Assembly (NCBI GenBank): GCA_964590755.1
Contig: CAZPYK010000001.1
Location: 16,897 to 80,896, forward strand
DNA: 64,000 bases
Reading direction: 5' to 3'
Source of the DNA: an uncultured Ruminococcus sp.
Lineage (GTDB): Bacteria; Bacillota; Clostridia; Oscillospirales; CAG-272
Position numbers and translations under genes: made by a program. Below, piece after piece: positions 12,970 to 38,637 of the stretch. A model generated the notes under the pieces. That model made no database searches, had not been told where the DNA came from, and was given only the letters and a program-made list of their open reading frames with translations. Positions within the stretch are counted from its first letter, which is position 1. Every line of letters begins with the position of its first letter.

Positions 12970-13001
12970 ATAAGTCTCCATTCCACCGCCATATCGACGG
13001 C
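12970..13001 (-). repeat. SD-abutting GC hairpin leader module, copy A (GNAT)
   Basis: Sense strand: GCCGTCGATATGGCGGTGGAATGGAGACTTATATG. Confidence 0.8.
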
Positions 13002-13093
13002 TCAAACAGTTAATTTTAATTCATCTGCCGACAAAAAGTAAAAGGCACGTTTTTAAGGTTAATTCAGCCATTGTCAACCGAAATTATGAATAT

Positions 13094-13122
13094 ATTATAC
13101 TACCGTTCTCCGATCAATTCAA
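13094..13122 (-). promoter_or_regulatory. Sigma-A promoter of the GNAT gene
   Basis: On the minus strand: TTGAAT, 17 nt, TATAAT. It predicts a leader of about 117 nt. Confidence 0.65.
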
Positions 13123-13228
13123 GTGCAGAAAAAATATTTCGTGTTTTTTTCATAATAGGACTTTCTTTTATATAAAAAATGTGATATACTCTTTACATGT
13201 ATAAAACAAATAAAAAGGACGGCCAAAC

Positions 13229-14725
13229 ATGCAACTCAGCAAGCTTATTGAAGAAGCGGGGCTTAAAAGATATATAACACAAATCCCCGCTGATATAAAC
13301 ATCACCGGTATATGCAGTAACTCAAAAGAAGCGGGAGTGGGCTCGCTGTTTATTTGTGTTGTCGGATCAAAATGGAATGGGCATCTTTTTGGCGCGGCGG
13401 CATACGATCACGGTTGCCGTGCATTCGTCTGTACGCAGCAGTTGACGCTTCCGGGGGATGCATGCTGTATTTACGTCAACGATGCGCGCAAGGTGACAGC
13501 CGATATAGCCTCGGTTTTTTACGGTCATCCGTCACGCGAACTGAAGATCATCGGGATTACCGGTACCAAGGGTAAAACGACATCGGCACTTATGGCGGCA
13601 CATATATTGAATTATTCCGGAATTTCGACGGGTTACATAGGCACAAGCGGAATAAGCTATAACGGGCAAATATATCCCAGCGTCAACACGACCCCCGACA
13701 GCCTCGTTATACAGCGCGTGATGCGCGATATGGTGAACTCGGGTATTCGAGCACTTGTAATGGAAGTCTCGTCTCAGGGGCTATTTATGAACCGTGTGAG
13801 GGGTATTGAGTTTGACACCGTTTGCTTCACTAATTTTTCGCCCGATCATATAGGCGAGCATGAGCACCCGACACTCGAACATTATGCGGGATGTAAGCGT
13901 AAGCTGTTCAGTGATTATAAGTCGGATTGTGCGGTGTTTAACATCGATGACGCAAAGCACGATTATATGTTGAAGGAATACCACGGAAAAAACAGAATAT
14001 CCTATTCGGCTGTAGACAGAGCGGCAGACCTTTGCCTGCAAAGCCCCGCTCTGACTCGGAAGGCTGACAAGTTGGGAATAAGCGCGACCGTTTTTCATCA
14101 TGACACCGAGCGAGAATTGTATATTCCAATGCCGGGAATTTTCAATTTGATGAACGCACTGTGCGCAATAGCCGCCACGTCTACATTCGGGATCCCCTTT
14201 GATCAAGCTGTGGATTCGTTGGCAACGATAGATATCGCAGGAAGATTCCAAATCGTAGACGCTCTCCCGGGTTCCGGAATAACCTTCGTGGTCGATTATG
14301 CGCATAACGGAGCTTCTCTTGAGTCCGCTTTGCTGGCGTTGCGCAAATATGAGCCTCGCCGGCTGATATGCCTGTTCGGTTCCGTCGGCGGTCGCACGCA
14401 AATACGCCGCAAGGAGCTCGGCGATGTGGCGGCCCAGCTTGCGGATTTCTGTATATTGACCTCGGATAACCCCGATTTCGAAGATCCCAACAGAATAATT
14501 GCCGACATCGCCGCATCCTTTAAGCCCGGAGCTTCCTGCGATTATGTACGAATTCCGGCGCGAGAACAGGCAGTCAAATATGCCATGGAGATAGCACTGC
14601 GTGGTGACATAGTACTTCTTGCCGGCAAAGGAGCCGAGAATTTTCAGCTGATAAGGGGAAAGCGCGAACCGTATTCCGATCGCGATGCGCTGATCGAATT
14701 TGCCGGTGCGGCGTTAGTCAAATAA
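13229..14725 (+). CDS. murE: UDP-N-acetylmuramoyl-L-alanyl-D-glutamate--2,6-diaminopimelate ligase
   Basis: Mur ligase P-loop GITGTKGKTT and C-terminal DNPD/ED motif (TSDNPDFEDP), 498 aa. Confidence 0.88.
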   Translation: MQLSKLIEEAGLKRYITQIPADINITGICSNSKEAGVGSLFICVVGSKWNGHLFGAAAYDHGCRAFVCTQQLTLPGDACCIYVNDARKVTADIASVFYGHPSRELKIIGITGTKGKTTSALMAAHILNYSGISTGYIGTSGISYNGQIYPSVNTTPDSLVIQRVMRDMVNSGIRALVMEVSSQGLFMNRVRGIEFDTVCFTNFSPDHIGEHEHPTLEHYAGCKRKLFSDYKSDCAVFNIDDAKHDYMLKEYHGKNRISYSAVDRAADLCLQSPALTRKADKLGISATVFHHDTERELYIPMPGIFNLMNALCAIAATSTFGIPFDQAVDSLATIDIAGRFQIVDALPGSGITFVVDYAHNGASLESALLALRKYEPRRLICLFGSVGGRTQIRRKELGDVAAQLADFCILTSDNPDFEDPNRIIADIAASFKPGASCDYVRIPAREQAVKYAMEIALRGDIVLLAGKGAENFQLIRGKREPYSDRDALIEFAGAALVK

Positions 14726-14764
14726 ATATTACGATTTATTGTTCAAATGAATTTCGTGTAAAAT

Positions 14765-14812
14765 ACCGACCTCCGATCCACTCGCGCAGAGAAGATCGGA
14801 GGTCGGTTCTTT
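14765..14812. terminator. Bidirectional terminator (murE / transglutaminase-like gene)
   Basis: 14-bp stem ACCGACCTCCGATC/GATCGGAGGTCGGT with T-rich flanks on both strands. Confidence 0.75.
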
Positions 14813-14841
14813 AATTATCGGAGATTAAACTCGGTATTATA

Positions 14842-16245
14842 TTATTTATTATCGCAAGCTGCGGTCTTCCGGGGCAGTTCCTCTGCCGAAATGACTTCAC
14901 GCGAAGCATCGAACTCTCCGAACCACAACGGCGCATCCGAATATTCTATCTCACCGCTTTGATCGTCATAAGGGTCACAGCGCAGATATATACGCGGAGG
15001 ATCGAATTTCTTGGCAAATGCGGTGCAATTAATTTGACGATACGGATCAAGGTTACCGAAATAATGATTCCAAAGCTCGCAGTCACCTTTTCTGAGCGCT
15101 CCTCCGCCGAATGAAGGATCACATGGCAACCATCCATACGGTGCAATGTAAAATTGTGCCCAATCGTGACTTCCGATGCTGTCGGGTTCAACATGGCTTC
15201 CGGATTGCCAACGAGCGGGTACTCCCATTGCGCGACAAAGCGTGATAAACAGCAGTGCCATTACACCGCAGTCACCTCTTCTGTTGAGCATGGCATATCC
15301 CGGAATAAAATCCATATAGAGATATGGACGCATATATGAATATGAAACATGAGTCGTGACATAGTCGTATGCTCGTCTTGCCAATATCAGCGGATCCGTT
15401 GCTCCCGAACGTAATTCTGCAGCCAGCTCGCATATTGCAGGCGTGAAACGGATCTGCGGCAGCTCCTCACAAAGATATTCTTCCATGCCGGAAACCGCCT
15501 TGTATGACGCACTGTAGTCTATAGTCCTATACGGTTCGTATATGTCATATGAGAATTCGATCCAATAATCCGCGCCGAGCTCGTGTGTTGTTTCAATGAA
15601 TGCGGTACGATGCTCGGAATCGGAGATATAGACGGGATGAGACGAGGATATCAGCTTGATATTTGCTTGCTCGGGACATTCCGCCGGATAAGGAAGATGT
15701 ACACGCACAACGCTGCCCGGACGCGAATGCTCGGCATCGGGAGCGACATGCTCGCGAATGCTATACCGATATGCCCTCCCACCCTGCTTTTTCATAATTT
15801 CAAGATTTTCGTGCAATCTTTTACTGAAATACTTTTCCGGATTCTGCTTTTCGCCGCTTTCAAGCTCATCAAGCTGCATGCGGCAACAATTCATAACATT
15901 TCTTGCGGCCGACGCATCAAAATAACGCTCGCCGTGACGACGGATATAATCGGCATATCCCATTTCCGTGAACATGTCAAGATCCGAAGCACTGCATTTG
16001 GGGAATTTTTCTCGTATCAGTGCCAGAATATCATCAAATGACAGCAGCTTGAAATGTGTCATCCCCTCGGCTATCACCGCTTCAAGCTCAAGACGAATGC
16101 GCATACCGGGCGATACATCCCTTTTCAAATATCGCTTTATTGCATCAAGCTCCCCATCAAAATCGCCGGAAAATTTATAAAAATTAATCTCATCCGGTAA
16201 TTCCAACGCCATATATTTGATATTATCTTCATCAAATCTGATCAT
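14842..16245 (-). CDS. Transglutaminase-like (cysteine protease fold) domain protein
   Basis: Cys-His-Asp core: RRGDCGVMALLFITLCRAMGVPARW, SHDWAQFY, LPCDPSFGG. SD AAAGGAG lies 6 nt before ATG 16245. Confidence 0.75.
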   Translation of the reverse strand: MIRFDEDNIKYMALELPDEINFYKFSGDFDGELDAIKRYLKRDVSPGMRIRLELEAVIAEGMTHFKLLSFDDILALIREKFPKCSASDLDMFTEMGYADYIRRHGERYFDASAARNVMNCCRMQLDELESGEKQNPEKYFSKRLHENLEIMKKQGGRAYRYSIREHVAPDAEHSRPGSVVRVHLPYPAECPEQANIKLISSSHPVYISDSEHRTAFIETTHELGADYWIEFSYDIYEPYRTIDYSASYKAVSGMEEYLCEELPQIRFTPAICELAAELRSGATDPLILARRAYDYVTTHVSYSYMRPYLYMDFIPGYAMLNRRGDCGVMALLFITLCRAMGVPARWQSGSHVEPDSIGSHDWAQFYIAPYGWLPCDPSFGGGALRKGDCELWNHYFGNLDPYRQINCTAFAKKFDPPRIYLRCDPYDDQSGEIEYSDAPLWFGEFDASREVISAEELPRKTAACDNK

Positions 16246-16266
16246 ATGCGGCTCCTTTTTCAAGCG

Positions 16267-17712
16267 TTAATCTATGGATGCTTCGGTGTCGGGTGTTACA
16301 TCGTCCGTACCGGTCGTTGTAGGCTTTCCGAGATATTCGGGCAACTTCATGCCCGCCATGTCGAACAGATCGGTAAGCGGAGGCACGGCTTTATAAAGCC
16401 CGGAAATAAATCCTGCTGTACTTCCCTTTCCGTCAGAGTTTCCTTGACCGTTGTCCCATACGGTTACCTTGTCTATCTTTATGCTCTTGACAGCTTCAAC
16501 TTGGATGCGCGTAAGCTCCTCAAGCTTATCGGTCACCATCAGGCGTATTGCGGCATTGGCGTCTCCGCCGGCTGCGGAAACCACCTGCGAAAGACCTTCC
16601 GCTTGCTTTATCAATATTTCTCGCGCGCCCGCCGCCTCAGCCTGCATCTTCATGAGTATTGCATCAGCTTCGCCTCGTGCCTTGCGGCGCATTTGTTCTG
16701 CTTCCGCTTCGGCTTTCAGCTCGGCTTCTTTTTTTGCTATCTCGGCTTTTACAAGGACATCCGCTTCAAGTTTAGCTCTTTCAAGCGCCGCCCTTGCGCT
16801 TTCCGCATCGCGCTGCGCGGCATACGATTCTTCCAGCGCCTTTGCGGATTGAATGTTTTCGGCGGCTACCGCACGTTTATTGGCTTCAGCCTCTCTTTCA
16901 CGCCTTGTTGCATCCGATTCGGCAATTTTTGCTTTAGCCTCGTTTTCTCCCGCAATAGCTTCGGAATTGGCGCGAGAAACATTGATCCTTTGATCCTTTT
17001 CGGCGGCAGATGCACCTATAGCACCGTTTCTGTCCGCTTCGGCGACCGATATTTTCGCATCGTTGATCGCCTTGGCTGCGGCCTCTTTACCCAACGCGGC
17101 TATATATCCGCTTTCGTCGTCGATATCGGTAACGTTAACGTTGATAAGTCGCAGACCTATCTTCTTAAGCTCGGTCTCAACGTTACCTGAAACCGCATCA
17201 AGAAATTTATCGCGGTCTGTGTTGATCTCCTCAATATCCATCGTAGCAATGACAAGACGCAATTGACCGAATATGATATCCTTGGCAAGCTCCTGTATTT
17301 CGGAAAGCTTCAACCCCAATAAACGCTCGGCGGCATTTTGCATAACTCCGACCTCGGTGGATATGCCGACCGTAAAACGAGACGGCACATCAACGCGAAT
17401 GTTCTGGTGCGAGAGCGCGTTTGTCAGATCTACCGGTATTGAAAGCGGCGTCAGATCGAGATAATCATAGGATTGAACTATCGGCACAATAAACGCAGCG
17501 CCGCCGTGTATGCATTTTGCTGAACGCTGTGTACCGTCTCGGTTCGTTCCGACCTTACCGTAGATAACCATGATCTTGTCCGACGGACACTTTTTGTATC
17601 TTGATGCAAACACTACGATAAACGCAAAAAGCACCACCGCGATCGCCATTACGATCATCGGCACGGTCGAGGATATTCCTCCGGTCAGCGATAAAAGAAT
17701 GAAGTGTGTCAT
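16267..17712 (-). CDS. Flotillin (SPFH/Band 7 domain, FloT/YuaG-like)
   Basis: N-terminal TM segment, SPFH domain, and a long Ala/Glu-rich flotillin repeat region (AEAEAEQMRRKARGEADA...), 481 aa. Confidence 0.85.
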   Translation of the reverse strand: MTHFILLSLTGGISSTVPMIVMAIAVVLFAFIVVFASRYKKCPSDKIMVIYGKVGTNRDGTQRSAKCIHGGAAFIVPIVQSYDYLDLTPLSIPVDLTNALSHQNIRVDVPSRFTVGISTEVGVMQNAAERLLGLKLSEIQELAKDIIFGQLRLVIATMDIEEINTDRDKFLDAVSGNVETELKKIGLRLINVNVTDIDDESGYIAALGKEAAAKAINDAKISVAEADRNGAIGASAAEKDQRINVSRANSEAIAGENEAKAKIAESDATRREREAEANKRAVAAENIQSAKALEESYAAQRDAESARAALERAKLEADVLVKAEIAKKEAELKAEAEAEQMRRKARGEADAILMKMQAEAAGAREILIKQAEGLSQVVSAAGGDANAAIRLMVTDKLEELTRIQVEAVKSIKIDKVTVWDNGQGNSDGKGSTAGFISGLYKAVPPLTDLFDMAGMKLPEYLGKPTTTGTDDVTPDTEASID

Positions 17713-17747
17713 TGACTTGTTTTCCTTTCTATCGGTAATTTAATAAT

Positions 17748-18464
17748 TTATTGTTGCTCTTTTGCGCGAGATATTCGCGATGATATCTCGGAAATATACG
17801 AATCCGCATCGGTATCTGCCAGTATCGGCAAATCGGCTGCAACCGAACCGTCGTTGTAATACATAACGATATGACGATATTGAGTTCTTCCTCGGTACAC
17901 CGTCGCGCTTTGCGTTGTGTTTCTGTATTCGACAGACAATAGATCGGCATATTTTAATTCGCAAAAATTGTCACTGACATCGTCATTCAGCAGGCTGACA
18001 CGACGATTTCCGATGCATATGGTATCGTTTTTCAACAAAAATCGTGAAAAGGAGAAAACGGAAGAACGTTCACGTCCGTCGTTGCCTTTTTTGAACATAG
18101 CGGTATTATCGTCAAAATAGTATGTTTCAAATGATATCGGTTCCGAGGAATGCACGGCGGATCCGCTGCCGTAACGAAGCTCGTTTTTATATTTTCGCAC
18201 ATCGGTGCGTATGAATCTGCCGTCGAAGTCCTCTTTGAAGGCAACGCCGAGCTCTGAGGTGCAGGTGTCTATCTCGCCGTCCTTTATACGCATGGCTGAT
18301 ATTACTGTCGCCAGCGCAATTCCGAGCGCAAGTATAGGCAAGCCTATGGGAGCCGAAATGAACACCACCATAATAGCCCCTATGGCTATCAAAACAGCCG
18401 AGATCACTATCGGATAGGTTCGATTGACCTGTTCAAAATATTTTCTGTTACGCCGATAATTCAT
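17748..18464 (-). CDS. Hypothetical membrane protein (two TM segments plus a soluble domain of about 170 aa)
   Basis: ATG 18464 lies 6 nt after GGAG of module copy B. An in-frame GTG at 18548 is an alternative start. I recognise no family. Confidence 0.6.
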   Translation of the reverse strand: MNYRRNRKYFEQVNRTYPIVISAVLIAIGAIMVVFISAPIGLPILALGIALATVISAMRIKDGEIDTCTSELGVAFKEDFDGRFIRTDVRKYKNELRYGSGSAVHSSEPISFETYYFDDNTAMFKKGNDGRERSSVFSFSRFLLKNDTICIGNRRVSLLNDDVSDNFCELKYADLLSVEYRNTTQSATVYRGRTQYRHIVMYYNDGSVAADLPILADTDADSYISEISSRISRAKEQQ

Positions 18465-18497
18465 AAAAATCTCCATTCCGCCGCCATGCGGCGGCAC
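18465..18497 (-). repeat. SD-abutting GC hairpin leader module, copy B
   Basis: Sense strand: GTGCCGCCGCATGGCGGCGGAATGGAGATTTTTATG. Confidence 0.85.
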
Positions 18498-18592
18498 AAA
18501 TTTCTGCGTGAAACAGTTTTTCTCGGTTTTGTTACATTGAACTTTCACGCTAAGACCTCTCTCTGCCGCATATTTGTGCGTCGCAATAAGCT

Positions 18593-19204
18593 TTAATTCT
18601 TTTTGTTATTTGTTCCTATAGGTTCAACGACCAGAACGCCGCTCTCGCTTACAGCCACAACTCGAACATAAGCACCGGTCTTCAAAGTATCGTCCACCGT
18701 TGTTATGGCAGGATACTCGCAAAATTTCTCTTGTATCGTGATCGTTACCTTGCCGGAACCCGAGCCGTTTGCGGGAACAGGTATGTATATTTGGGCCACC
18801 TTGCCTATGGCGTTGGCGATATCCACATTACCGGAGGATTGAAGCATATACACTCCGCGCATGAGAAATGCCATACCTATAAGAGTGGCGATTCCCGCTG
18901 CGACCGCGATCGCTACCGCGACCCAATCCGGCAATGCTGTCTCAAGCAGACCGACACCCAACCACCCGGTGATGCATAGCATTGAAAGTATTCCGCGAAC
19001 CGAAAAGACAGACAGCCCGTCATCTGCCGATACGTCATCCGGCACATCATCAGGTATTCCGTCTCCATCGACATCCTCGGGCGAGTCGTCTCCCACGCCT
19101 ATCAACTGCAGTATTGTTTGCAAAACAAGAATGAGTGTGGACGGAATTGCGATCAGAGCAAATATCTGTTGAGCCAATTCAAGGCCATTCCACCAATTGA
19201 TCAT
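18593..19204 (-). CDS. NfeD-family membrane protein (YuaF-like, flotillin partner)
   Basis: N-terminal TM segments, an acidic linker, and a C-terminal OB-fold segment GKVAQIYIPVPANGSGSGKVTITIQ. It lies upstream of the flotillin gene. Confidence 0.75.
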   Translation of the reverse strand: MINWWNGLELAQQIFALIAIPSTLILVLQTILQLIGVGDDSPEDVDGDGIPDDVPDDVSADDGLSVFSVRGILSMLCITGWLGVGLLETALPDWVAVAIAVAAGIATLIGMAFLMRGVYMLQSSGNVDIANAIGKVAQIYIPVPANGSGSGKVTITIQEKFCEYPAITTVDDTLKTGAYVRVVAVSESGVLVVEPIGTNNKKN

Positions 19205-19236
19205 AATAAGCTCCCCTTCCGCGCCGTCTCGCGGCG
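19205..19236 (-). repeat. SD-abutting GC hairpin leader module, copy N (variant SD GGGGAG)
   Basis: Sense strand: CGCCGCGAGACGGCGCGGAAGGGGAGCTTATTATG. Confidence 0.7.
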
Positions 19237-19278
19237 ACAAAAATAAATTCAGAATAATACAATCTTATCATCTTTTGC

Positions 19279-19863
19279 TTAAGTTCGCATCAACTTGTCG
19301 ACCATCGAATCGGAATAATTCTTTATGACAGAGGCATAGTATGCTATAACGATAACCTCAAGAGCGGTGTTGAGCCGTCTTCTTGCACCGCTTATCTTTT
19401 CCTCGTAATCTGCGGTAACTCTTTCTATACAGGCTTTGAGCGAGTTTTCCTCGGTGCTGATGCTTGCATACATCAGTTCGTCCAGAATGCGACATATATA
19501 ATCATACAGCTGAGAATCGCGAATTATATCATCCTGCTTATCATATATCCTTCCGTTGATATACGAGATCAAAAACGCGATCTTGTCGAGTTGCATACAA
19601 GAGCGCAGCATGTTAATTATAAGAATGTGTGCCACTTGATCGATATCATATTTTTTTAGTTTAGAATTCTCAACCCATCCGCGCTTTGTCCAATTTTGGA
19701 GAGTCGAACCGTCAATTCCGGATATCTCTCTGATTTGAGACAGCATAACACCATCCTGAATATAAAACACCTTGTTCAAAAAAGCCATACCGGTGACATT
19801 TCCCATTGCTTCTCTTTTTAATATAGTTCCGGGAATGAGAACATCGTTTATCTGAAGCCTCAT
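19279..19863 (-). CDS. DUF1836-like protein with a MerR-like HTH
   Basis: STLQNWTKRGWVENSKLKKYDIDQVAHILIINMLR resembles the DUF1836 core. SD GGAGGAG precedes ATG 19863. Confidence 0.6.
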   Translation of the reverse strand: MRLQINDVLIPGTILKREAMGNVTGMAFLNKVFYIQDGVMLSQIREISGIDGSTLQNWTKRGWVENSKLKKYDIDQVAHILIINMLRSCMQLDKIAFLISYINGRIYDKQDDIIRDSQLYDYICRILDELMYASISTEENSLKACIERVTADYEEKISGARRRLNTALEVIVIAYYASVIKNYSDSMVDKLMRT

Positions 19864-19900
19864 GACGGCATCTCCTCCACTCATCGTTTGCGGTATTTTT

Positions 19901-20605: not shown

Positions 20606-20639
20606 ATCAATCTCCATTCCGCCGCCATTGCGGCGGCAC
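20606..20639 (-). repeat. SD-abutting GC hairpin leader module, copy C
   Basis: Sense strand: GTGCCGCCGCAATGGCGGCGGAATGGAGATTGATATG. Confidence 0.85.
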
Positions 20640-20758
20640 AAATTGCTCATGAAATTCACCTGTGTCGCTTGCGACAAAAATGGGGTAGGGTCCCATTTTT
20701 AAGGTAAATTTGGGCGTGAAACAGGCGCTCTTTAGATTTTGAATTATTGAACTTTCAC

Positions 20759-20790
20759 GCTAATCTCCATTCCGCCGCCGATTTACGGCG
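20759..20790 (-). repeat. SD-abutting GC hairpin leader module, copy D, preceding a 4-codon mini-ORF
   Basis: Sense strand: CGCCGTAAATCGGCGGCGGAATGGAGATTAGC, then GTG AAA GTT CAA TAA (20758-20744). Confidence 0.75.
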
Positions 20791-20809: not shown

Positions 20810-20838
20810 ATTTTACCATACTTCAATGCTTTTTTCAA
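20810..20838 (-). promoter_or_regulatory. Sigma-A promoter of the HAD gene leader
   Basis: On the minus strand: TTGAAA, 17 nt, TAAAAT with an upstream TGg. Confidence 0.6.
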
Positions 20839-21001
20839 CTCTCTAAAACGCGCATACAGGCAATTATTTCATCGCGATCGAGGTATAGTGCGAAAATTGA
20901 ATGTTTCAAGAAGAAAAAATTCTCAGACAATATTTAACCCCCAAATCGGGCTTCGCTCGTTTTTTGTTGCAAGCGACACCGGTAAATTTCACGAGCAATT
21001 T

Positions 21002-21034
21002 GCGCCGCCGCATGGCGGCGGAATGGAGTTTATT
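21002..21034 (+). repeat. SD-abutting GC hairpin leader module, copy E
   Basis: GCGCCGCCGCATGGCGGCGGAATGGAGTTTATTATG. Confidence 0.85.
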
Positions 21035-21634
21035 ATGAACGATACATTTTTCAAGCTCGGGATACTCCCCGCCATCCTTCTTGCCGCGACTATACTGTTA
21101 GAGCCCCCGGGGGTTTCGGTGCCATCCCTGGCTGCCGCCGCAATACACGAAGGCGGACATCTTTTGGCTGCAAAAGCACTGAAAATCGAACTGCATTCAC
21201 TTAGCCTGAATCCGATCGGCGCAACTATTCACACTCGCGGAGCTCTCATATCATATAAAAAAGAATGGTTGCTGTGCTTTGCCGGTCCGTGCGCAAATCT
21301 TTTGTCCTGTGGCATAGCATATATTCTGAACGACAATTCGGAAGCTGCATACGGTACGGCAGCATTTAATTTTTTTGCCGTATCATTCATGCTTGCGATA
21401 TTAAATCTTCTTCCCATCGAAAGCTTTGACGGTGGCAGAATGATGTATTGCACGATAGGCAATTTTTTCGGACCGCGAGTCGGATTTGCGGTTCTCAGAG
21501 CCTGTTCGATAATATCTGTTTGCGGACTGTGGATGCTGTCGGTCTATCTGTTGATGCGTTGGGGAACGTCCATGTCACTGCTCGTCTTTTCATCATCGGT
21601 TTTTTGTCGCATTTTCATATGCTCCGAAAAATAA
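21035..21634 (+). CDS. M50-family (site-2 protease-like) membrane metalloprotease
   Basis: HExxH (IHEGGHLLAA) inside a TM segment and a second motif NLLPIESFDGGRM. An in-frame GTG at 20888 is an alternative start. Confidence 0.75.
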   Translation: MNDTFFKLGILPAILLAATILLEPPGVSVPSLAAAAIHEGGHLLAAKALKIELHSLSLNPIGATIHTRGALISYKKEWLLCFAGPCANLLSCGIAYILNDNSEAAYGTAAFNFFAVSFMLAILNLLPIESFDGGRMMYCTIGNFFGPRVGFAVLRACSIISVCGLWMLSVYLLMRWGTSMSLLVFSSSVFCRIFICSEK

Positions 21635-28563: not shown

Positions 28564-28594
28564 GGGGCTTGCGCCGCTATGCGGCGCAAGCCCC
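28564..28594 (-). repeat. Perfect 14-bp GC-rich hairpin upstream of the pcrA SD (possible variant of the leader module)
   Basis: Sense strand: GGGGCTTGCGCCGCATAGCGGCGCAAGCCCC, then GGTGATTCGAAAGGAACGTACATATG. The core CGCCGCATAGCGGCG resembles the module stem. Confidence 0.5.
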
Positions 28595-30296: not shown

Positions 30297-30327
30297 AACA
30301 GTCTCCATCCGCCGCCATACCGCGGCA
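30297..30327 (-). repeat. SD-abutting GC hairpin leader module, copy F
   Basis: Sense strand: TGCCGCGGTATGGCGGCGGATGGAGACTGTTATG. Confidence 0.75.
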
Positions 30328-30383
30328 ACATTTTTGGGGGATACGCTATCTCAGAAGCACAAATTACGCGCACGGCCGGCATC

Positions 30384-31125: not shown

Positions 31126-33897
31126 TTAAGTGTTAGTGTCGTTAAGCTTTGCACCGCAACACTTCTTGTATTTTTTTCCACTCCCGCATGGACAAAGCGC
31201 ATTTCGATCGATCTTTTCTCCACCTTGTGCGGAAACTTCTCTCTGCTGTTTTTGTGATTTCTCCACACTGCGGCCCATCCTCAAATTTTTGACCATTTCG
31301 GGTGTAATGACGATGACTTCGGGGATTCTCTCCGTCAACAGTTCGCGAACTGTTTTATCTCTTATTTCGGTAATAAGATCGCCGAACATATTTGAGCCCA
31401 GCAGCTTATATTCGGTCAACGGATCCTTATGCGCATATGACTGAAGCCTCACATTTTGTTTGAGGTTTTCCATATCATCTATGTGATCGAGCCACAACTC
31501 ATCAATATTGTGGAGTAATGTATTTCTTTCAAAGCGATGGAAGCGATCTTCCCCGACTTCATCCTCTCGCGCGGTGTACAGCTTTTGAGCGTTTGCACTC
31601 AATACCTCGGCGATCTCGTCGGCGGTAATATTCGCGAGCTCATCCGCGGAGTACTTCAGATCATCCTCGCCGCATGCCCAGCCGAGATATTTTCTGCGAA
31701 GCAATTCGATATCCCATTCTCGCTTCTCGGCGGATGCTGTTGCCGCAGACACCGACTCGGAAATGGTTGACGCTATCATTTCTTTGAGTTTGGAGGAGAG
31801 ATCCGACTCATGAATTATTTCATCTCTCTGCTCGTAGATAGCTTTGCGCTGTTCGTTGAGGATATCATCGTATTCGAGAACACTCTTTCTTATCTTAAAG
31901 TTTCGATTCTCAATACGCTTTTGTGCGCTTTCGATCACATTTGAAAAGAGACTTATGTTTTGCGACATATCCCCACTGTCATCGGTAAGCTTAGCGGCGA
32001 AGGCGGAAAGCTTTTGCAACTTAGCGGGATCGGCGAAAAGCCGCATCAGGTCATCCTGCAGCGAAATAAAGAATGTCGACTCCCCGGGGTCCCCCTGGCG
32101 TCCCGAACGTCCGCGCAACTGGTTGTCTATGCGTCGGCTTTCGTGGCGCTCGGAACCGATTATATAAAGTCCGCCGGCGTTTATCACCTTTTCACGATTC
32201 GGAATGATCTCGGTCTTATATTTTTCATAATATATCCTAAAGGTGTTGCGAGCATTTTTTACATCTTGATTTTCGGTCGGTGCAGTACCTGTGGAAAGCG
32301 CTATAAGCTCGGGTCTGAGCCCCATGCGTGCCATTTCCTGTTTTGCCATATGCTCCGGATTGCCGCCCAGCATTATATCGGTACCGCGCCCCGCCATATT
32401 GGTCGCGATCGTTACGGTTCCCGCGCGCCCCGCCTCTGCGATTATTTCAGCCTCTCGTTCATGATTTTTCGCGTTCAAAACATTATGGGGTATTCCCTTT
32501 GCTTTGAGCATGCGCGAAAGGATCTCGGATTTTTCAACCGATGCGGTACCGACCAGAACCGGTTGCTGCTTTGATCGACATTCCTCAACCAAAGCGATCA
32601 CAGCACGGAATTTCGAATTTTCATCGGTAAAAATACGATCCGGGTGATCCTCTCTTATCATCGGTTTGTTTGTTGGTACCTCAACAACATCCAAACCGTA
32701 TATCTCGCGGAATTCCTCTTCCTCGGTCAGCGCCGTGCCGGTCATTCCCGAAAGCTTGTGATACATACGGAAATAATTCTGTATCGTAACCGTCGCGGTC
32801 ACCTTCATCTCCGATCTGACATTGACCTTTTCTTTGGCCTCCAGTGCTTGATGCAGACCATCCTGATAACGTCTTCCGGGCATAAGTCTCCCCGTAAACG
32901 GATCAACGATGATGATCTCGCCGTCTTTGACCACATAGTCAACATCTCTTTTTTTCACACCATGAGCATGTATTGATTGGTTGACATTGTGAGCTATTCC
33001 GGCATTTTCGGGATCATTAAGATTATCGATGCCGAAAAACTCCTCAATCTTTTTTGCTCCGCGCGGAGTGAGCACCGCACTGCTGTGTTTTTCATCAACG
33101 ATATAATCGAAATTTTCATCATCCGTCTCGAGCTTTGTGTCAATTTCTTTGATGACTTTTTTCGAAAGCCTTCTTACTGCGGCATCGCATTTTTCGTAGA
33201 TATCTGTTGATTTACCGCTCATGCCCGAAATTATGAGCGGCGTGCGTGCTTCATCGATCAAGATGGAATCAACCTCGTCGATTATCGCAAAATAATGTCC
33301 GCGCTGCATTTGAGCGTCCAGAGTGGTCTGAAGATTATCGCGAAGATAATCAAAGCCGAATTCATTATTCGTGCCGTATGTGATATCTGCGGCATAATTG
33401 CGCTTTTTTTCCGCCGGAGACATCTCCTTGGTAATGACGCCCGTCCTAAGGCCCAAATATTCAAATATGCGCCCCATCTCTCCCGCATCGCGCACGGCAA
33501 GATAATCATTGACGGTAACTATGTGAACACCCTTTCCCGTGAGTGCATTTAGATATGCCGGCATAGTTGCGACCAGTGTCTTCCCCTCGCCGGTTTTCAT
33601 TTCGGCTATTCTGCCTTGATGAAGCAAAATACCTCCGAGCACCTGTACACGGAACGGGCGCTTGCCGAGGATGCGATCCGCAACTTCGCGCACCGCAGCA
33701 AAGGCATGAGGAAGTATATCATCAAGTGTTTCGCCGGCGTCGAGGCGCGTCTTCAGAGACGCCGTGACCGAGCGGAGCTCATCCTCGCTCATTTTTTTAT
33801 ATTTCTCTTCAAGAGCATCTACCGCATCTGCGGTACTCTTGATCTTTTTTAACTGCCTTTTGCTGTAATCTCCGAATAAAAGAGTTTCGATCTTCAT
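31126..33897 (-). CDS. secA: Preprotein translocase ATPase SecA
   Basis: Walker A MKTGEGKTL, DEAD-like IIDEVDSILIDEA, and C-terminal zinc motif CPCGSGKKYKKCCG. The start at MKIETLLFG matches SecA N-termini, and the ORF-track extension to 34005 is T-rich promoter DNA. Confidence 0.9.
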   Translation of the reverse strand: MKIETLLFGDYSKRQLKKIKSTADAVDALEEKYKKMSEDELRSVTASLKTRLDAGETLDDILPHAFAAVREVADRILGKRPFRVQVLGGILLHQGRIAEMKTGEGKTLVATMPAYLNALTGKGVHIVTVNDYLAVRDAGEMGRIFEYLGLRTGVITKEMSPAEKKRNYAADITYGTNNEFGFDYLRDNLQTTLDAQMQRGHYFAIIDEVDSILIDEARTPLIISGMSGKSTDIYEKCDAAVRRLSKKVIKEIDTKLETDDENFDYIVDEKHSSAVLTPRGAKKIEEFFGIDNLNDPENAGIAHNVNQSIHAHGVKKRDVDYVVKDGEIIIVDPFTGRLMPGRRYQDGLHQALEAKEKVNVRSEMKVTATVTIQNYFRMYHKLSGMTGTALTEEEEFREIYGLDVVEVPTNKPMIREDHPDRIFTDENSKFRAVIALVEECRSKQQPVLVGTASVEKSEILSRMLKAKGIPHNVLNAKNHEREAEIIAEAGRAGTVTIATNMAGRGTDIMLGGNPEHMAKQEMARMGLRPELIALSTGTAPTENQDVKNARNTFRIYYEKYKTEIIPNREKVINAGGLYIIGSERHESRRIDNQLRGRSGRQGDPGESTFFISLQDDLMRLFADPAKLQKLSAFAAKLTDDSGDMSQNISLFSNVIESAQKRIENRNFKIRKSVLEYDDILNEQRKAIYEQRDEIIHESDLSSKLKEMIASTISESVSAATASAEKREWDIELLRRKYLGWACGEDDLKYSADELANITADEIAEVLSANAQKLYTAREDEVGEDRFHRFERNTLLHNIDELWLDHIDDMENLKQNVRLQSYAHKDPLTEYKLLGSNMFGDLITEIRDKTVRELLTERIPEVIVITPEMVKNLRMGRSVEKSQKQQREVSAQGGEKIDRNALCPCGSGKKYKKCCGAKLNDTNT

Positions 33898-34037
33898 GTT
33901 TTGTAGCCACGGTCGCCGCTTTGCGACGTTTCCTTTCCAACGAAGCTTGTTTTTTCGATTGTTAGATATTATTATACAACATATAAAGAAAAAAAAACAG
34001 TACAAAATGTGAATTTTACAAAGCTATTATCAAATAC

Positions 34038-34066
34038 TTGAAAAAAATATGCATTTGTTGTATAAT
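34038..34066 (+). promoter_or_regulatory. Consensus sigma-A promoter of mnmA
   Basis: TTGAAA, 17 nt, TATAAT. It predicts a leader of about 115 nt. Confidence 0.7.
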
Positions 34067-34184
34067 ATTTTTTGTGAATGCCCCGGAACGCCATTGCTCG
34101 AACGCGACATGTTCGACGACCGTGCGTTTCGTTTTTATTGACGCATAGCTTGAAGAAGACCTTGAGAAAGGAATACCGTAAATC

Positions 34185-35237
34185 ATGAAAAAAGTTCTGC
34201 TCGGGATGAGCGGCGGCGTAGACAGCACAATATCCGCCTTGATCTTGAAAAACGCCGGGTACGACGTTACCGGAATAACATTTATAATGACAGATGCCAT
34301 GGCATTGACATGCGGGAGCGGCTCTGCCGCGTCACAAGCCGCAACTGCGGCGGCAGAGATCGGCATACCGCACATTATTTCGGATGTGAGAAATGCTTTC
34401 GAAGAAAATGTGATAGACCGTTTCCTCGAAGAATATATGAACGGCCGGACCCCCAATCCCTGTGTCGTATGTAACAAGACCATAAAATTTCCGTACATGC
34501 TGAAATATGCCGATGAACACGGCTTTGACTTTATCGCCACCGGGCATTACGCTTCGATTACAGAAGACTCCGCAGGCTTTCATTTAATGACGGCATGCGA
34601 CAATCTCAAAGACCAAACATATTTTCTGTACACGCTGACACAGGATATTCTTTCGCGAACGATCTTTCCTCTTTCCGGCATGACCAAGGGAGACGTCAGA
34701 AAGCTTGCCGAGGATCATGGTGTCTCTGCCGCCCAAAAAAAGGATAGCCAGGATATATGCTTTATTCCGGACGGCGACTACAAAATGTTTGCGGCCGCAC
34801 GCATCAAATCTCTGCCGCCTGAGGGCGAATTTATCAACGCCGAAGGAAAAGCTATCGGCAAGCATTGCGGAATACTCAACTATACGATAGGCCAGCGCAA
34901 AGGACTGGGAATCTCGCTGGGTAAACCGATGTTTGTCGGTGCAATAAATCCAACAACCAATCAAATCACGCTTTGCGAAAAAAATGCACTCTATAAAAGT
35001 TCCGTAATCATAAAAAAAGCCACCTTTGTATCGGGTCGCGCGCCGACGGAAGCCTTCAATGCGGACGTTAAGACGAGATATACCACAAAACGCTCATCCG
35101 CCACGGTAATTCCGATTGAAGAACATGACGGAGAATTCAAGCTTGTTTTCGAATCTCCGGAACGCGCCCCAACGCCGGGGCAATCCGCGGTATTCTATAT
35201 AGGCAACGAGTTGATCGGCGGCGGAATCATTTCTTGA
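34185..35237 (+). CDS. mnmA: tRNA 2-thiouridine(34) synthase
   Basis: PP-loop GMSGGVDS, catalytic Cys region NPCVVCN, and ATGHYA motif. Confidence 0.9.
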   Translation: MKKVLLGMSGGVDSTISALILKNAGYDVTGITFIMTDAMALTCGSGSAASQAATAAAEIGIPHIISDVRNAFEENVIDRFLEEYMNGRTPNPCVVCNKTIKFPYMLKYADEHGFDFIATGHYASITEDSAGFHLMTACDNLKDQTYFLYTLTQDILSRTIFPLSGMTKGDVRKLAEDHGVSAAQKKDSQDICFIPDGDYKMFAAARIKSLPPEGEFINAEGKAIGKHCGILNYTIGQRKGLGISLGKPMFVGAINPTTNQITLCEKNALYKSSVIIKKATFVSGRAPTEAFNADVKTRYTTKRSSATVIPIEEHDGEFKLVFESPERAPTPGQSAVFYIGNELIGGGIIS

Positions 35238-35248
35238 TATATATGCAC

Positions 35249-35282
35249 TTACCGGCTACCGCGCATTCGCGGCAGCCGGTAA
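35249..35282. terminator. GC-rich hairpin between convergent genes (likely terminator)
   Basis: 13-bp stem ACCGGCTACCGCG/CGCGGCAGCCGGT with one mismatch. U-tracts are weak on both sides. Confidence 0.45.
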
Positions 35283-35314
35283 ATGTTAAGTGTTATTTTT
35301 ATTCGCTATCCGAA

Positions 35315-35812
35315 TTATTTTGCAACATACTGCTCGGTCGTGACGAGCTTATAAACTATCTTGTCTCCGTCATTTACGACATAGGTCGTCGAAGTTCCCT
35401 TATCGGGCGTAACACCGTTTACCGTCCAGACAAAGTGAGTGTTGGCATATGTCGAACCGGCTTCATCACTTGAAACGACCTTGCTCGATGTAGCAAGCTT
35501 TTCATCGTTAAATGTGATGGTATCGACCGATCCGTCGGTGAGAGCGGTGAATGTACCGCCTCTTTCGGTTATAAGAGCAACAAGAGCATCATTGACGGTG
35601 ATATCCTTGCCTTCTTCTTTTGTCATCTCAAGAGCCGTGCTCGCCATGAATACCGTTTCGGTACCGTCGCTTTCGGTCGTGTAAAGCTCAACGGAAACCG
35701 TTATCTTCGCATTATCGTTACCGCTGTTATTGTCGCAAGCAACAAACATAGTCGCAACACTGACAAGCATAAGTGCGGCAAGCACCAAGGAGACAATCTT
35801 TTTCGTTTTCAT
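35315..35812 (-). CDS. DUF4430-like (transcobalamin-like fold) lipoprotein
   Basis: Signal peptide with lipobox FVAC and the C-terminal pattern ...WTVNGV...V.DGDKIVYKL typical of DUF4430. Confidence 0.6.
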   Translation of the reverse strand: MKTKKIVSLVLAALMLVSVATMFVACDNNSGNDNAKITVSVELYTTESDGTETVFMASTALEMTKEEGKDITVNDALVALITERGGTFTALTDGSVDTITFNDEKLATSSKVVSSDEAGSTYANTHFVWTVNGVTPDKGTSTTYVVNDGDKIVYKLVTTEQYVAK

Positions 35813-35912
35813 TTTTAATTACCATACCTTTCTTTCGCCGACATTGTCAAGGTGCATCGCGCCACATGTTCGTTAAACCAATTATGTCGCGACGCTTATC
35901 GGACTATAAAAG

Positions 35913-35941
35913 ATTATACAATGCCGAAGTACTTTTGTCAA
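35913..35941 (-). promoter_or_regulatory. Consensus sigma-A promoter of the DUF4430 lipoprotein gene
   Basis: On the minus strand: TTGACA, 17 nt, TATAAT. Confidence 0.7.
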
Positions 35942-35989
35942 TACTCTTTAGTATATTTTTTAAATTAATCTAAGAAAAAATACTTAAGA

Positions 35990-38608
35990 TCACAGCGCCG
36001 CATCAATCTTTTTACGCATGTTACGAAAGATGTCGAAGCTTCCGTCCGGCAACCAAGCCAACTGCGTTTGCGGTATAGTCACATCAACCATAGTTGCGGG
36101 CAGATGCTCATCATCAAGTATCCATGATTCCGCCGTTGCATGTTCTGTACAGGCGTGATTGTATGGCAAACTGCTTCCCGAATACATTCCGAAATATCTT
36201 CCGTTGCCCGATGCACCTTGATAATAGGAGTAACGGCTGTTCAAATACGGGTGAACGCCGCCATCGACCTTGATGCAGGTATATTGAGCATCGGATATAT
36301 ATATCTCCATCGGGAGAGCTCTATCGACGAGCACGAGCGACTTTTGCACAAGGTTTTCCACAGGGCAAGCGTCGCAAGCCACACCTCCGGTCACCGAATC
36401 GAACCATACCCAAACATGACGATCGCATTCTGTTGTCGGTTGAGTGCCGCGCAAGAAGTACCCGGTCTCGGCACAATCTCCGCGCGGATCATCAAGGCAA
36501 GCGTCGGTGATCAACTTACCGGAATACTTGCAATAGGTGCACTTTACAACATCGTCGGAAACGGTAAAGGTCTTCAGCACTTCGGTTCCCGCATCCACAG
36601 CATCGAATATCGGTTGATGGATCTCGGTCATCATCGTGTTCCACACTATTCCCGAGGGGTTGTCTCCCGGTATCGCTTTGGGATACTCATAGCCGTACCA
36701 AACTCCGCAGATATAATACGGAGAATAACCGATAAACCATCTGTCGTAGTTGTCTCCCGCGGAACCGGTCTTCGCGGCAAGCTCTATTTTTGAATCCAAC
36801 TTAATATATCCGCTGTGAGCAACGACATTTTGCATCAGCTTGGTCATTATAGACGCGGTCGATTCGCTGAGTGCTATCGTACCCTCGTAATCATTTTGAA
36901 GGATCACGCTCCCCAAGCTGTCCTCAACCTTGAGATAAGAATGCGATTCGTTATAAACACCGTAATTGGCGAATATCGAATACGCCGCCGTCATCTCTCT
37001 TACGGTAAGTCCGTAGTTCAGCTGCCCCAAAGCAAGCGCGGCGTAACCCTTGTCGGTCAATGTCTGACCGCTCGACAGCGTCTGAGATTCAATGAGATTT
37101 TCAAGATGCAATGTCTCCTTGCAGAAGCGGAAGGATCGCTCCAACCCGACTTTTTCAAGGACCTTTAAGGAGACGGTATTCAATGAGTTTTCCACAGCAT
37201 ATTTTATATTCGTTAATCCGCGATAGTAATAATCGAAGTTTTTCGGCCATGCGGTATTATTCGTATAAGAATACGGCGTGTCATCTACCACAGATGCGTA
37301 GGTCACGAGCCCGTTTTCGATAGCCGGAGCGTAAACCGCCAACGGCTTGATCGATGAGCCCGGGGATCTTTTTGTAGTTGTTGCATAGCTTTGGATACGG
37401 TTGGCTGTTTTTTCGCCTCTTGCGCCTACCACACCCAATATATCGCCGGTCTCGGGATCTATGACTATAGCCGACGATTGAGCGGGAACACCGGATTTGT
37501 TTTCCGGGAAGTTGGAATCGTCAAGATACGTCTCCTCAAGAATGGTTTGGATCCTTTCGTCGACAAGCAGATATATCTTCCAACCGCTGTTATAAACCTT
37601 TATCGCGGCTATCTCTCGCGAGACCTTGTATTGCTCGGCATAATCATCTATGATATCCTCTATTGCCATATCGGTATACCACGAATTGATATTGATATCG
37701 TGCGTGTCATCGGTAACATTGAGTACGAGCTCCTTGTCGTACGCCTCATCGTATTCGCGCTTATTGATAAGCCCCTGCTCAAGCATAAGATCGAGCACTG
37801 TATTCCGTCGCTTGAGATTTTCCTCCGGATGCGTTATGGGATTGTAGCGAGACGGATTTTTGGTTATAGAAGCAATTGCGGCACATTCTATCAAAGTCAA
37901 TTCGCTGACGTCCTTATCAAAATATTTATACGCCGCCGCCTGAACTCCGTAACATCCGGAGCCCAAATTGATTATATTAAGATACAGCTCAAGTATCTCT
38001 TCTTTTTCTTTTTTCTTTTCAAGGTCAAGTGCCCAGAGTATCTCTTGGATCTTTCTTTGTATCTTGTACGAATCGTCCCCCGAAACGTTTTTGACAAGCT
38101 GTTGAGTTATCGTGGAGCCACCGTATCCCGAATCGTCAAAGCCCAAGAAAAAGTTGGCTCCCGCTTTGATCGTTCTGAGCCAGTCCACACCGTCATGAGT
38201 CCGAAAGCGCTTGTCCTCAACTGCGATAAATGCGTTTTGCAGATCCACCGGGATACTGTCATATTCCACATAAATGCTGTTCTTCGGACCGTAAAGACAC
38301 TCGTCCTCAAGTTCTACCGCTTCTCCGACACGATTGGCGCGATCCGTGAACTCGTATCTGTATATACGCGTGGTCGTAGATGAGTTCAGATCGAGTGTAT
38401 ATTGAGAAATATCCACTTCTGTCTTGACGTAATTTTTAATATAGATCGTAAAAACGCAAACGACTATTATTCCGGTCAATACGCAGACCAGCAAAAAGGT
38501 GACCAGCACATTTATAAAAACTCGAAGCGCGGTCATTACGCCCTTTATAAAAAGCGCGCCCGCTTTTTTTATCTCCTCATACCAATTGATCTTTTTTTGT
38601 TTTTGCAT
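35990..38608 (-). CDS. Class A penicillin-binding protein (glycosyltransferase plus transpeptidase) with a Cys-rich C-terminal extension
   Basis: GT51 motifs (AVEDKRFRTHDGVD, GGSTITQQL), transpeptidase SxxK (SPGSSIKP) and KTG (KTGSAG). A tail of about 200 aa contains nine Cys. Confidence 0.88.
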   Translation of the reverse strand: MQKQKKINWYEEIKKAGALFIKGVMTALRVFINVLVTFLLVCVLTGIIVVCVFTIYIKNYVKTEVDISQYTLDLNSSTTTRIYRYEFTDRANRVGEAVELEDECLYGPKNSIYVEYDSIPVDLQNAFIAVEDKRFRTHDGVDWLRTIKAGANFFLGFDDSGYGGSTITQQLVKNVSGDDSYKIQRKIQEILWALDLEKKKEKEEILELYLNIINLGSGCYGVQAAAYKYFDKDVSELTLIECAAIASITKNPSRYNPITHPEENLKRRNTVLDLMLEQGLINKREYDEAYDKELVLNVTDDTHDININSWYTDMAIEDIIDDYAEQYKVSREIAAIKVYNSGWKIYLLVDERIQTILEETYLDDSNFPENKSGVPAQSSAIVIDPETGDILGVVGARGEKTANRIQSYATTTKRSPGSSIKPLAVYAPAIENGLVTYASVVDDTPYSYTNNTAWPKNFDYYYRGLTNIKYAVENSLNTVSLKVLEKVGLERSFRFCKETLHLENLIESQTLSSGQTLTDKGYAALALGQLNYGLTVREMTAAYSIFANYGVYNESHSYLKVEDSLGSVILQNDYEGTIALSESTASIMTKLMQNVVAHSGYIKLDSKIELAAKTGSAGDNYDRWFIGYSPYYICGVWYGYEYPKAIPGDNPSGIVWNTMMTEIHQPIFDAVDAGTEVLKTFTVSDDVVKCTYCKYSGKLITDACLDDPRGDCAETGYFLRGTQPTTECDRHVWVWFDSVTGGVACDACPVENLVQKSLVLVDRALPMEIYISDAQYTCIKVDGGVHPYLNSRYSYYQGASGNGRYFGMYSGSSLPYNHACTEHATAESWILDDEHLPATMVDVTIPQTQLAWLPDGSFDIFRNMRKKIDAAL

Positions 38609-38637
38609 AGAGATCCTCGCTCCGCCGCCGTGCGGCG
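38609..38637 (-). repeat. SD-abutting GC hairpin leader module, copy G (variant SD GAGCGAGGA)
   Basis: Sense strand: CGCCGCACGGCGGCGGAGCGAGGATCTCTATG. The upstream GGTGGATTTCACAAATAACATT aligns with copies C and E. Confidence 0.7.

Follow-up and report, generated by a model that had tools for sequence, protein, structure and literature searches.

The 64,000-nt stretch analyzed here (the window; contig CAZPYK010000001.1 of an uncultured Ruminococcus sp.) carries several copies of a leader module, a G/C hairpin joined to a conserved Shine-Dalgarno (SD) sequence, located immediately upstream of start codons. The sequence GGCGGCGGAATGGAG occurs exactly at 18471-18485, 20612-20626 and 20765-20779 on the minus strand and at 21014-21028 on the plus strand, and with one mismatch at 12976-12990 on the minus strand. 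With up to three mismatches allowed, 10 matches were found in the window, compared to a mean of 2.3 in shuffled sequences, and none of 100 shuffles reached 10. A covariance model (R1), built from 105 copies of the hairpin-SD module, identified seven clear copies and a marginal eighth. Together these results bear out the original prediction, made by reading the sequence alone, that such a module exists at these positions. The copies are given below with their R1 scores; P1 to P4 and Z refer to the helices of the longer unit described further on.

18468..18550, minus strand: copy B, an 83-nt miniature element, GCGTGAAAG...CTGTTTCACGC...ATTTGTGCCGCCGCATGGCGGCGGAATGGAGATT, inserted 3 nt 5' of the ATG (18464-18462) of a DUF6106-like gene; 69.5 bits.
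20609..20760, minus strand: copy C, a 152-nt miniature element composed of P1 (GCGTGAAA/TTTCACGC), P2 around P3, P4, and then the Z hairpin and SD, inserted 3 nt 5' of the ATG (20605-20603) of the HAD gene; 64.6 bits; nhmmer E=7e-44.
20761..20790, minus strand: copy D, a solo hairpin and SD, CGCCGTAAATCGGCGGCGGAATGGAGATTA; 29.5 bits.
20888..21031, plus strand: copy E, a 144-nt miniature element with a degenerate left end, GTGCGAAAA, followed by P2-P4 and the Z hairpin and SD, inserted 3 nt 5' of the ATG (21035-21037) of the M50 peptidase gene, whose native SD, GAGG, lies at 20880-20883; 64.9 bits; nhmmer E=5e-31.
12970..13067, minus strand: copy A, before the GNAT gene (ATG 12969-12967), an older and partly decayed copy with a P2-P4-like region, the Z hairpin and SD; 50.9 bits; nhmmer model positions 58-168.
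19205..19258, minus strand: copy N, a degenerate solo hairpin and SD, CGCCGCGAGACGGCGCGGAAGGGGAG, before a 203-aa gene; 23.3 bits.
30297..30345, minus strand: copy F, a degenerate hairpin and SD, TGCCGCGGTATGGCGGCGGATGGAG, before a 470-aa gene; 32.2 bits; predicted fold -11.7 kcal/mol.
38609..38659, minus strand: copy G, a weak hairpin and SD before a class A penicillin-binding protein (PBP) gene; 14.0 bits, E=0.69.

The sequence TAGCGT just 5' of copy F is a possible remnant of a left end, and G is possibly a decayed member of the family, although this assignment is uncertain. In Pfam searches the genes behind copies A, C, E and G were assigned to GNAT, HAD, M50 and class A PBP (Transgly and Transpeptidase), that behind B matched DUF6106 weakly, and those behind N and F had no Pfam match. 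The first four had been named correctly from the sequence, whereas an NfeD assignment found no Pfam support. The module had also been credited with eight genes, but the number is seven, since copy D now faces only a 4-codon frame, GTG AAA GTT CAA TAA, which is the 5' end of copy C. A hairpin of this sort is found at about 10 of 40 SD-supported starts in the window, which rules out a universal hairpin before every SD. In other genomes one copy per 8-kb locus is usual, and the window is unusually dense.

When one genome per species was scanned with the pattern CGCCGN{3,6}GGCGGCGGAATGGAG, at least 118 loci were obtained, against roughly 4 expected in random sequence by a rough estimate. Among the matches listed, almost all were from Clostridia (Lachnospiraceae, Oscillospiraceae, Anaerovoracaceae and unclassified Eubacteriales metagenome-assembled genomes, MAGs), mostly of gut or rumen origin. 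An ATG was located 4-9 nt past GGAG in 103 of these 119 occurrences, and at exactly 6 nt in 81, so that the expected position relative to start codons was found well beyond the window. Conservation extended to the flanks outside the pattern, with ...CTTTCATTACTATTTGTGCC 5' of it and ATTAWT-ATG 3' of it. The 99 downstream proteins, again among the matches listed, fell into 94 BLAST clusters, in agreement with the earlier statement that the genes are functionally unrelated; they include the products of glnS, aroC, dapF, hisA, trpS, era, typA, mreB, secE and phoU, as well as a phage portal protein. Rfam gave no family match to the module, either across the whole window at the gathering threshold or with the leaders at E<=10. 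Sequence-string (k-mer) literature searches found the motif in no paper, and keyword searches found no described Clostridial repeat. The plasmid and phage collections of GenBank held no match to the 152-nt element, and IMG/VR gave 7 pattern matches only. In many MAGs the contig ends about 30-250 nt from the hairpin (L004, L007, L013, L016, L020, L028, L050, L059, L061, L063, L071, L074, L083, L084 and L117), as we would expect for assembly breaks at an adjoining multi-copy element.

The predicted folds of the window hairpins range from -9 to -19 kcal/mol, with GGAG and AUG unpaired. The helix extends past the G/C core (AUUU.UGCCGCC paired with GGCGGCG.GAAU, with a conserved G/G or A/G mismatch), and GGAG therefore stands directly at the 3' foot of the stem. 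The extended Z stem contains a U.G wobble in 87 of the 105 copies, which is possible on the sense strand only; such sense-only G.U pairs were found in P4 and Z and in none of P1-P3. The loop varies from 3 to 8 nt among copies, while the stem sequence is nearly invariant. The stem sequences of the N hairpin differ between the window (19205-19258) and loci L158 (5373-5429) and L120 (~5360-5405; its N-gene orthologue is 77% identical) but all still pair, perhaps because compensatory changes occurred or because the hairpin was replaced repeatedly; L129, L123 and L135 have no hairpin at this site.

These features bear on two suggestions of the original prediction, namely that the module is a palindromic operator in double-stranded DNA for a global factor, or a CsrA-like protein site beside the SD. 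A stem nearly invariant across bacterial families, a variable loop and the GGA contained in AAUGGAG would suit either. The arms, however, form only an imperfect DNA palindrome (the GTGCC/GGCGG pairing includes T.G and G/G), the loop changes in length, the U.G wobble is confined to the sense strand, and the module keeps its place relative to ATG, not relative to promoters. The loops are variable and lack GGA, which occurs in the stem foot or the SD instead. Copies are moreover present or absent between close relatives, and the mobile-element evidence given below accounts for the sequence conservation. We regard both proposals as highly improbable.

The repeat itself is longer than the 30-35 nt initially attributed to the module. 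Repeat finding revealed 81-nt similar arms at 20629-20709 and 20932-21012, well past 35 nt, and copies B, C and E are units of 83-152 nt with further helices; the nearest copy to E is C, with 73% identity. Clustering of upstream sequences from different loci gave a window-type unit composed, in order, of an SD, 7-9 nt, a GUG AAA... forming the 5' arm of P1 (AGCGUGAAAG), a variable loop, the 3' arm of P1 (CUUUCACGC), P2 enclosing P3, P4, the Z hairpin, SD and AUG. P3 is terminator-like, with an A-tract, a hairpin and a U-tract. The structure was tested on an alignment of 15 sequences (A2), in which 89.4% of cells were paired, compared to 40-51% with the partners slid. Compensatory changes were found in 12 pairs, with 5 of 9 pairs in P2 and 3 of 4 in P4, which suggests that the interior may matter as RNA or as single-stranded DNA. 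The Z stem was invariant, a consequence of how the sequences were ascertained, and covariation, proposed earlier as a check on the stem, is provided by P2 and P4 and not by Z.

The GUG frame at the left end extends over 3-70 codons and shares only the sequence 'MK'. A conserved leader peptide was ruled out by this variation, and also because the SD of this upstream open reading frame (uORF) is a displaced host SD, as described below. An in-frame N-terminal extension of the host protein (B, L022, L040 and L042 read through) was ruled out as well, given the differing loop lengths and an early stop in most copies. It should be noted that gene calls were misled here: the NCBI HAD protein (P0001, 229 aa) begins 15 codons upstream, inside the hairpin (20606-20650), and the B-gene open reading frame (ORF) runs in frame from GTG 18548 across the entire insert (18465-18548).

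A unit of this kind could be read as a structured cis-regulatory RNA leader that senses a global signal and was spread by duplication, with the hairpin-SD as its expression platform. The multi-helix structure with its high pairing and 12 compensatory pairs, mostly in P2 and P4, is what such a leader would show, as are the resemblance of P3 to an intrinsic terminator, the SD-preceded GUG mini-ORF at the 5' end, and the sense-strand wobbles in Z and P4. The downstream genes, however, have no functional coherence, and no Rfam match was obtained even at E<=10. Further evidence against this explanation comes from related genomes and from a transposase-bearing form of the unit.

A close relative of the window was available in contigs L158-L161, with a HAD protein 88% identical and a nucleotide identity across genes of 75%-99%. 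Its gene order is that of the window (M50-HAD-DUF1836-N-B-Band7-...-GNAT-permease). The relative carries copies A (R1 58.1 bits) and N and lacks B, C/D and E, with a degenerate hairpin and SD at the site of D. At the B site the two sequences differ by a single clean 83-nt indel: the relative reads ...GAGAAAGGCCTTA|TTTATGAATTAT, while the window reads ...GAGAGAGGTCTTA, then the insert GCGTGAAAG...GGAATGGAGATT, then TTTATGAATTAT (in short, GGTCTTA[GCGTG...GGAGATT]TTTATG in the window and GGCCTTATTTATG in the relative). The native SD of this gene, GAGAGAGG, is left behind at ~18565-18558. At the B site, L120, L129 and L123 also have a short plain SD region with no insert, and B is therefore a gain in the window lineage. 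Between the M50 and HAD genes the relative has 151 nt and the window 429 nt, with inserts of 152 nt and 144 nt. The relative has GAGGCAGATA-ATG at the E site, and distant syntenic HAD/M50 loci have only a short promoter and SD, with no C or E. A promoter-like sequence, TTGAAA-17-TAAAAT with a TG (20810..20838, minus strand), lies upstream of D and C; it is host sequence and is kept in L158.

All three inserts follow ...TA, exactly 3 nt before ATG and downstream of the native SD. What appeared as an SD-N7-GUG uORF is therefore a displaced host SD facing the left end of the element. Because C was inserted before the HAD ATG, copy D was stranded upstream of it; D is an older ribosome binding site (RBS) module of the HAD gene. 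The termini of the window type are GCGTGAAAG... and ...ATTTGTGCCGCCG-loop-CGGCGGCGGAATGGAGATT, the inserts ending in GGAGATT. Copies B, C and E have no terminal inverted repeats, and the B insert has no target duplication; the combination of both that defines classical miniature inverted-repeat transposable elements (MITEs) was thus not found in the window copies.

The same site preference was observed in other genomes. The left flank was TA in 26-28 of 29 elements, with a right end GGAG(G)ATT, and all copies were in the sense orientation of the host gene. Compared to a background of other SD-supported starts in the same loci, the element sites were enriched in A at -3 (0.66 vs 0.41, p=6e-5), T at -1 (0.67 vs 0.37, p=9e-7) and ATGAA (43% vs 23%, p=4e-4). 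The window copies are thus insertions with exact position and boundaries, one orientation and a target preference. Integron attC sites or gene cassettes were ruled out as an explanation, since the copies stand in divergent orientations before housekeeping genes.

In Lachnospiraceae, termini of matching type (G[C/T]GTGAAAG … ATTTGTGCCGCC-loop-GGCGGCGGAATGGAGATT) bound a 1650-nt element that carries a transposase of the IS110 family. In several of these loci an antisense gene lies between the left end (SD-N-TA|GTGTGAAAGAAAGTAGA...) and the Z hairpin, and Pfam assigned it DEDD_Tnp_IS110 and Transposase_20 (PF01548 and PF02371). An IS110 transposase with matching termini was found in 7 loci and in 10 further ones (among them L024, L048, L065, L078, L169 and L170-L179), and the same arrangement was present on a Roseburia plasmid that had been found by similarity to the insertion sequence (IS) and not by the motif.

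The carrier was tested with ten loci fetched by one exact transposase protein, P0161, alone. This protein is listed by NCBI as 'IS110 family RNA-guided transposase [Merdimonas faecis]' and occurs on hundreds of contigs. All ten loci were identical from the transposase start through ...CTTTCATTACTATTTGTGCCGCCaactgaaaGGCGGCGGAATGGAGATTA, the hairpin loop included. At the right junction the sequence ...GCCGCCaactgaaaGGCGGCGGAATGGAGATTA was followed by (A/G/T)T and then, in 9 of the 10, by ATG and unrelated host genes (RelA/SpoT, CarD, peptidase C15, Imm26 and others); ATC stands in place of ATG at the tenth, L173, where no gene start adjoins. At the left junction, all ten had unrelated host sequence ending in an SD, 3-7 nt and TA|GTGTGAAAG..., and the bases after this TA were identical throughout (GTGTGAAAGAAAGTAGAGGCC...). 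Since ten independent insertions share an identical hairpin and loop between unrelated flanks, the hairpin-SD is part of the 1650-nt IS. An initial reading, that an IS110 element had landed in the P1 loop of a pre-existing small repeat, was ruled out by the identical loops in the ten copies. In the IS, the counterpart of P1 is formed by the terminus GTGAAAG paired with a subterminal CTTTCAT, and a conserved non-coding end of ~294 nt lies between the terminus and the transposase. An Rfam search of the IS, non-coding end included, gave no bridge RNA or other relevant match. Two short Lachnospiraceae elements, L113 and L045, consist of the first ~17 nt and the last ~55 nt of the 1650-nt IS.

Some further features of these elements were observed. 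The non-coding end of the IS (L067 ~1380-1465; L048 and L169) contains an internal ATTTGTGC (ccacttATTTGTGCttgaaag), an 8-mer also found before the hairpin; L067 lacks the ~190 nt that separate these two 8-mers, and CGCCG... of the hairpin directly follows the internal one. In L178 the transposase-proximal flank is that of L172 (DUF1307/MatE side) and the transposase-distal flank that of L175 (alpha-amylase side), as if two copies of one IS110 element had recombined and so rearranged the locus. Inspection by eye revealed a candidate outward promoter, TTGTAG-16-TAGTAT, inside the IS near the hairpin end, ~70-110 nt 5' of the host ATG (L170-L179), which could drive transcription of the host gene. 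An unannotated 112-nt sequence ~80% identical to the transposase-distal part of the IS was found in Enterococcus faecium plasmids (NC_017963.1, 216895-217006; NZ_CP084179.1; NZ_CP065529.1).

The RNA leader explanation is difficult to reconcile with these observations, that is, with presence or absence between close relatives at exact boundaries inside the SD-ATG spacer, with ten copies of a transposase-bearing IS that carry the identical hairpin and loop, and with a uORF whose SD belongs to the displaced host site and whose peptide is unconserved. Older copies have in addition shed P1-P4 and retain the hairpin and SD only. We therefore consider a sensory leader quite improbable.

A different mobile-element explanation is that an HUH/Y1 transposase (of the IS200/IS605-PATE, REP/RAYT, IS91 or Helitron-like type) moves the miniatures, and that IS110 merely shares or has captured their ends. 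The lack of terminal inverted repeats and target duplication, the TA| flank and a G/C hairpin ~7-12 nt from the 3' end are in keeping with such a transposase, and the conserved imperfections of the hairpin (U.G and the G/G mismatch) resemble protein-recognised imperfect palindromes. Yet the sole protein found between the termini, in the 7 and the 10 further loci, is the DEDD transposase of the IS110 family, and no Y1/HUH gene was found between or beside the termini in the fetched loci. The two ends of IS200/IS605 carry similar hairpins, whereas the end hairpins P1 and Z have no sequence relation to each other. Inverted repeats and target duplications are, moreover, missing from IS110 elements too, and IS900 shares the target type. 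Mobilization by an HUH/Y1 enzyme is thus improbable.

The hairpin and GGAATGGAG leader is most probably (a probability of roughly 0.75) the terminus that faces outward in an IS110-type element and in its transposase-less miniatures. A mobile or recombining leader cassette had been the third hypothesis of the original prediction, and it is the one that stands, with the copies identified as IS110 termini or miniature derivatives. Its remark that no described family or class was recognizable holds for Rfam, but the module does belong to mobile elements of the IS110 family. Translational control or mRNA stability, its first hypothesis, agrees with the data insofar as the module supplies the downstream SD; no sign of regulation was found.

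Several observations weigh against assigning the window copies to IS110. No IS110 transposase was found by tblastn in the 64-kb window or in any sampled locus of the Oscillospiraceae type, and the window copies are therefore non-autonomous. A full-length element of the window's own type, with a long ORF between the left end and the Z end, was likewise absent from the fetched loci. The window elements resemble the Lachnospiraceae IS over ~40 nt of the right end and ~9 nt of the left end only, and their P2-P4 interior has no counterpart in it; besides the ends, both have the P1 arrangement, orientation and target in common. TA flanks the full-length IS on either side, a duplication that the B insert does not show. 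Finally, P2 and P4 covary strongly across genomes, which a passive deletion derivative would not need.

This last point would be met if the 83-152-nt copies were actively spreading portable RBS or leader cassettes whose internal helices act as RNA. In that case P2, P4 and P3 may form a guide- or bridge-like RNA for insertion of the cassette at start codons, or a module that resets transcription or translation, and IS110-type elements would have rewritten the initiation regions of many genes, a sizeable share of the total, in some gut Clostridia, the window accounting for ~7-10 of its roughly 40-55 genes. We find this rather unlikely.

In the favored IS110 interpretation, an element with no terminal inverted repeats would land in one orientation after '...SD-N(1-7)-TA', 3 nt before ATG, and so part the host gene from its own SD. 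The host gene being cut off from its native SD, the element would carry a replacement, GGAG, at its very end, which would come to sit 6 nt from the host ATG and leave the gene translatable. It is this GGAG that the host gene probably uses. At the 3' foot of the stable G/C hairpin it would stay single-stranded, as in the predicted folds, and the hairpin may serve to keep the new SD accessible or insulated. The displaced native SD would face the other terminus (G[C/T]GTGAAAG), giving a short, unconserved GUG-initiated pseudo-ORF. B, C and E would be transposase-less miniatures that keep both termini, and A, D, N, F and perhaps G older, decaying copies with little beyond the hairpin and SD left. 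By analogy with characterized members of the family, we infer that the miniatures were moved in trans by an IS110 recombinase with a guide (bridge) RNA.

Members of the IS110 family provide close precedents. IS900 has neither inverted repeats nor target duplication, its target CATGNNNNNNTCTCCTT (CATGN6TCTCCTT) is the reverse complement of SD-N6-CATG, and its antisense ORF hed has no RBS of its own and depends on that of the host (PMC8141618). IS110 elements leave their site as circles, under the guidance of a bridge RNA from the non-coding end (PMC11208160), and supplying the transposase and the non-coding region in trans mobilizes a mini-IS whose ends are intact (PMC11187229).

The Clostridial elements share with IS900, IS901, IS902 and IS1110 of the Mycobacterium avium complex a DEDD-type transposase, the lack of inverted repeats and duplication, a single orientation, the gap between RBS and start codon as target, a transposase antisense to the host gene and a host RBS facing an ORF at the element end. 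They differ in their host bacteria, Clostridia, and in their numerous transposase-less derivatives of 60-150 nt. Another, apparent difference is that they end in a conserved G/C hairpin and a GGAG replacing the host SD at 6 nt from ATG. In place of a full-length hed, as in IS900, the displaced SD is followed by a short frame without conservation. With the IS621-type IS110 and the IS1111 seekRNA elements they share the transposase domains, a long non-coding end (~294 nt) and sequence-specific scarless insertion, the RNA-guided mechanism being that of the family (PMC11208160). The natural targets of IS621 and ISPpu9/10 are, however, REP elements and not translation starts. For a guide of 11-14 nt it would also be unusual to have a target as degenerate as that of the Clostridial elements (TA and AWT-ATG-AA, with an SD at varying distance).

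Comparable small repeats (MITEs, Correia/NEMIS, ERIC, BOX, RUP and MIRU) are short, multi-copy, non-coding and modular, are co-transcribed with their neighbours and fold into stable hairpins; MIRUs, which are likewise found between genes and in the direction of translation, contain start and stop signals. The elements described here differ from these repeats in having no inverted repeats or duplication, a fixed insertion point at -3, and a distribution across several families of Clostridia versus one genus. They resemble REP/BIME-RAYT repeats and IS200/IS605 PATEs in their G/C-rich imperfect palindromes, intergenic location and lack of inverted repeats or duplications, but no Y1 transposase was seen in the fetched loci, and they lie at a fixed distance 5' of ATG, versus mostly 3' of genes, and carry an SD.

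Some additional sequences in the window were noted. The R1 scan gave two further weak signals, and the leader of the xanthine/uracil permease gene and the region upstream of pcrA also contain hairpins.

60770-60817 (or 60761-60817), minus strand: a weak hairpin and SD, GTGCCGAAGCATAACGGCAGAACGGAG, before a 212-aa gene, which may be a decayed copy; 15.3 bits, E=0.25.
10929-10984, plus strand: a weak hairpin-SD.
10700-10980: the permease leader, with two hairpins, then TTTTTCATTCGGCG..., a further hairpin GATGTCCGC/GCGGCATC and GGAGG.
28564-28594: a perfect 14-bp hairpin, GGGGCTTGCGCCGC ATA GCGGCGCAAGCCCC, ~-16 kcal/mol, 17 nt 5' of the pcrA SD.
59992-60064, minus strand: a tRNA gene, the sole Rfam match in the window.

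The permease leader is identical in the close relative and has no Rfam match; perhaps it is an old copy that has decayed, perhaps a leader unrelated to the module. The pcrA hairpin has no T-run after it on either strand, and R1 gave no detection there; with the similar core that had been ascribed to it, it is a putative member at best.

The IS110 family and the targeting style of IS900 are already known. What appear to be undescribed in the literature searched are the hairpin-SD replacement RBS, the abundant structured miniatures and the breadth of the elements across gut Clostridia. IS110 elements are the source of bridge-RNA recombinases, and the elements described here form a large natural IS110 group, on thousands of gut-metagenome contigs, whose target appears to be the few bases that separate SD from start codon. 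They may provide compact parts for the engineering of gut Firmicutes: a target rule, a hairpin-SD insulator and miniature mobilisable elements. For gene callers and searches for RNA motifs they are a warning, as starts are mis-called in the hairpin and the leaders mimic a novel riboswitch. Translation initiation regions are seen here to turn over by insertion between close relatives. A built-in replacement RBS would make insertion into essential genes survivable, and the spread of such elements would account for a near-identical 40-nt leader on unrelated housekeeping genes across several families of Clostridia.

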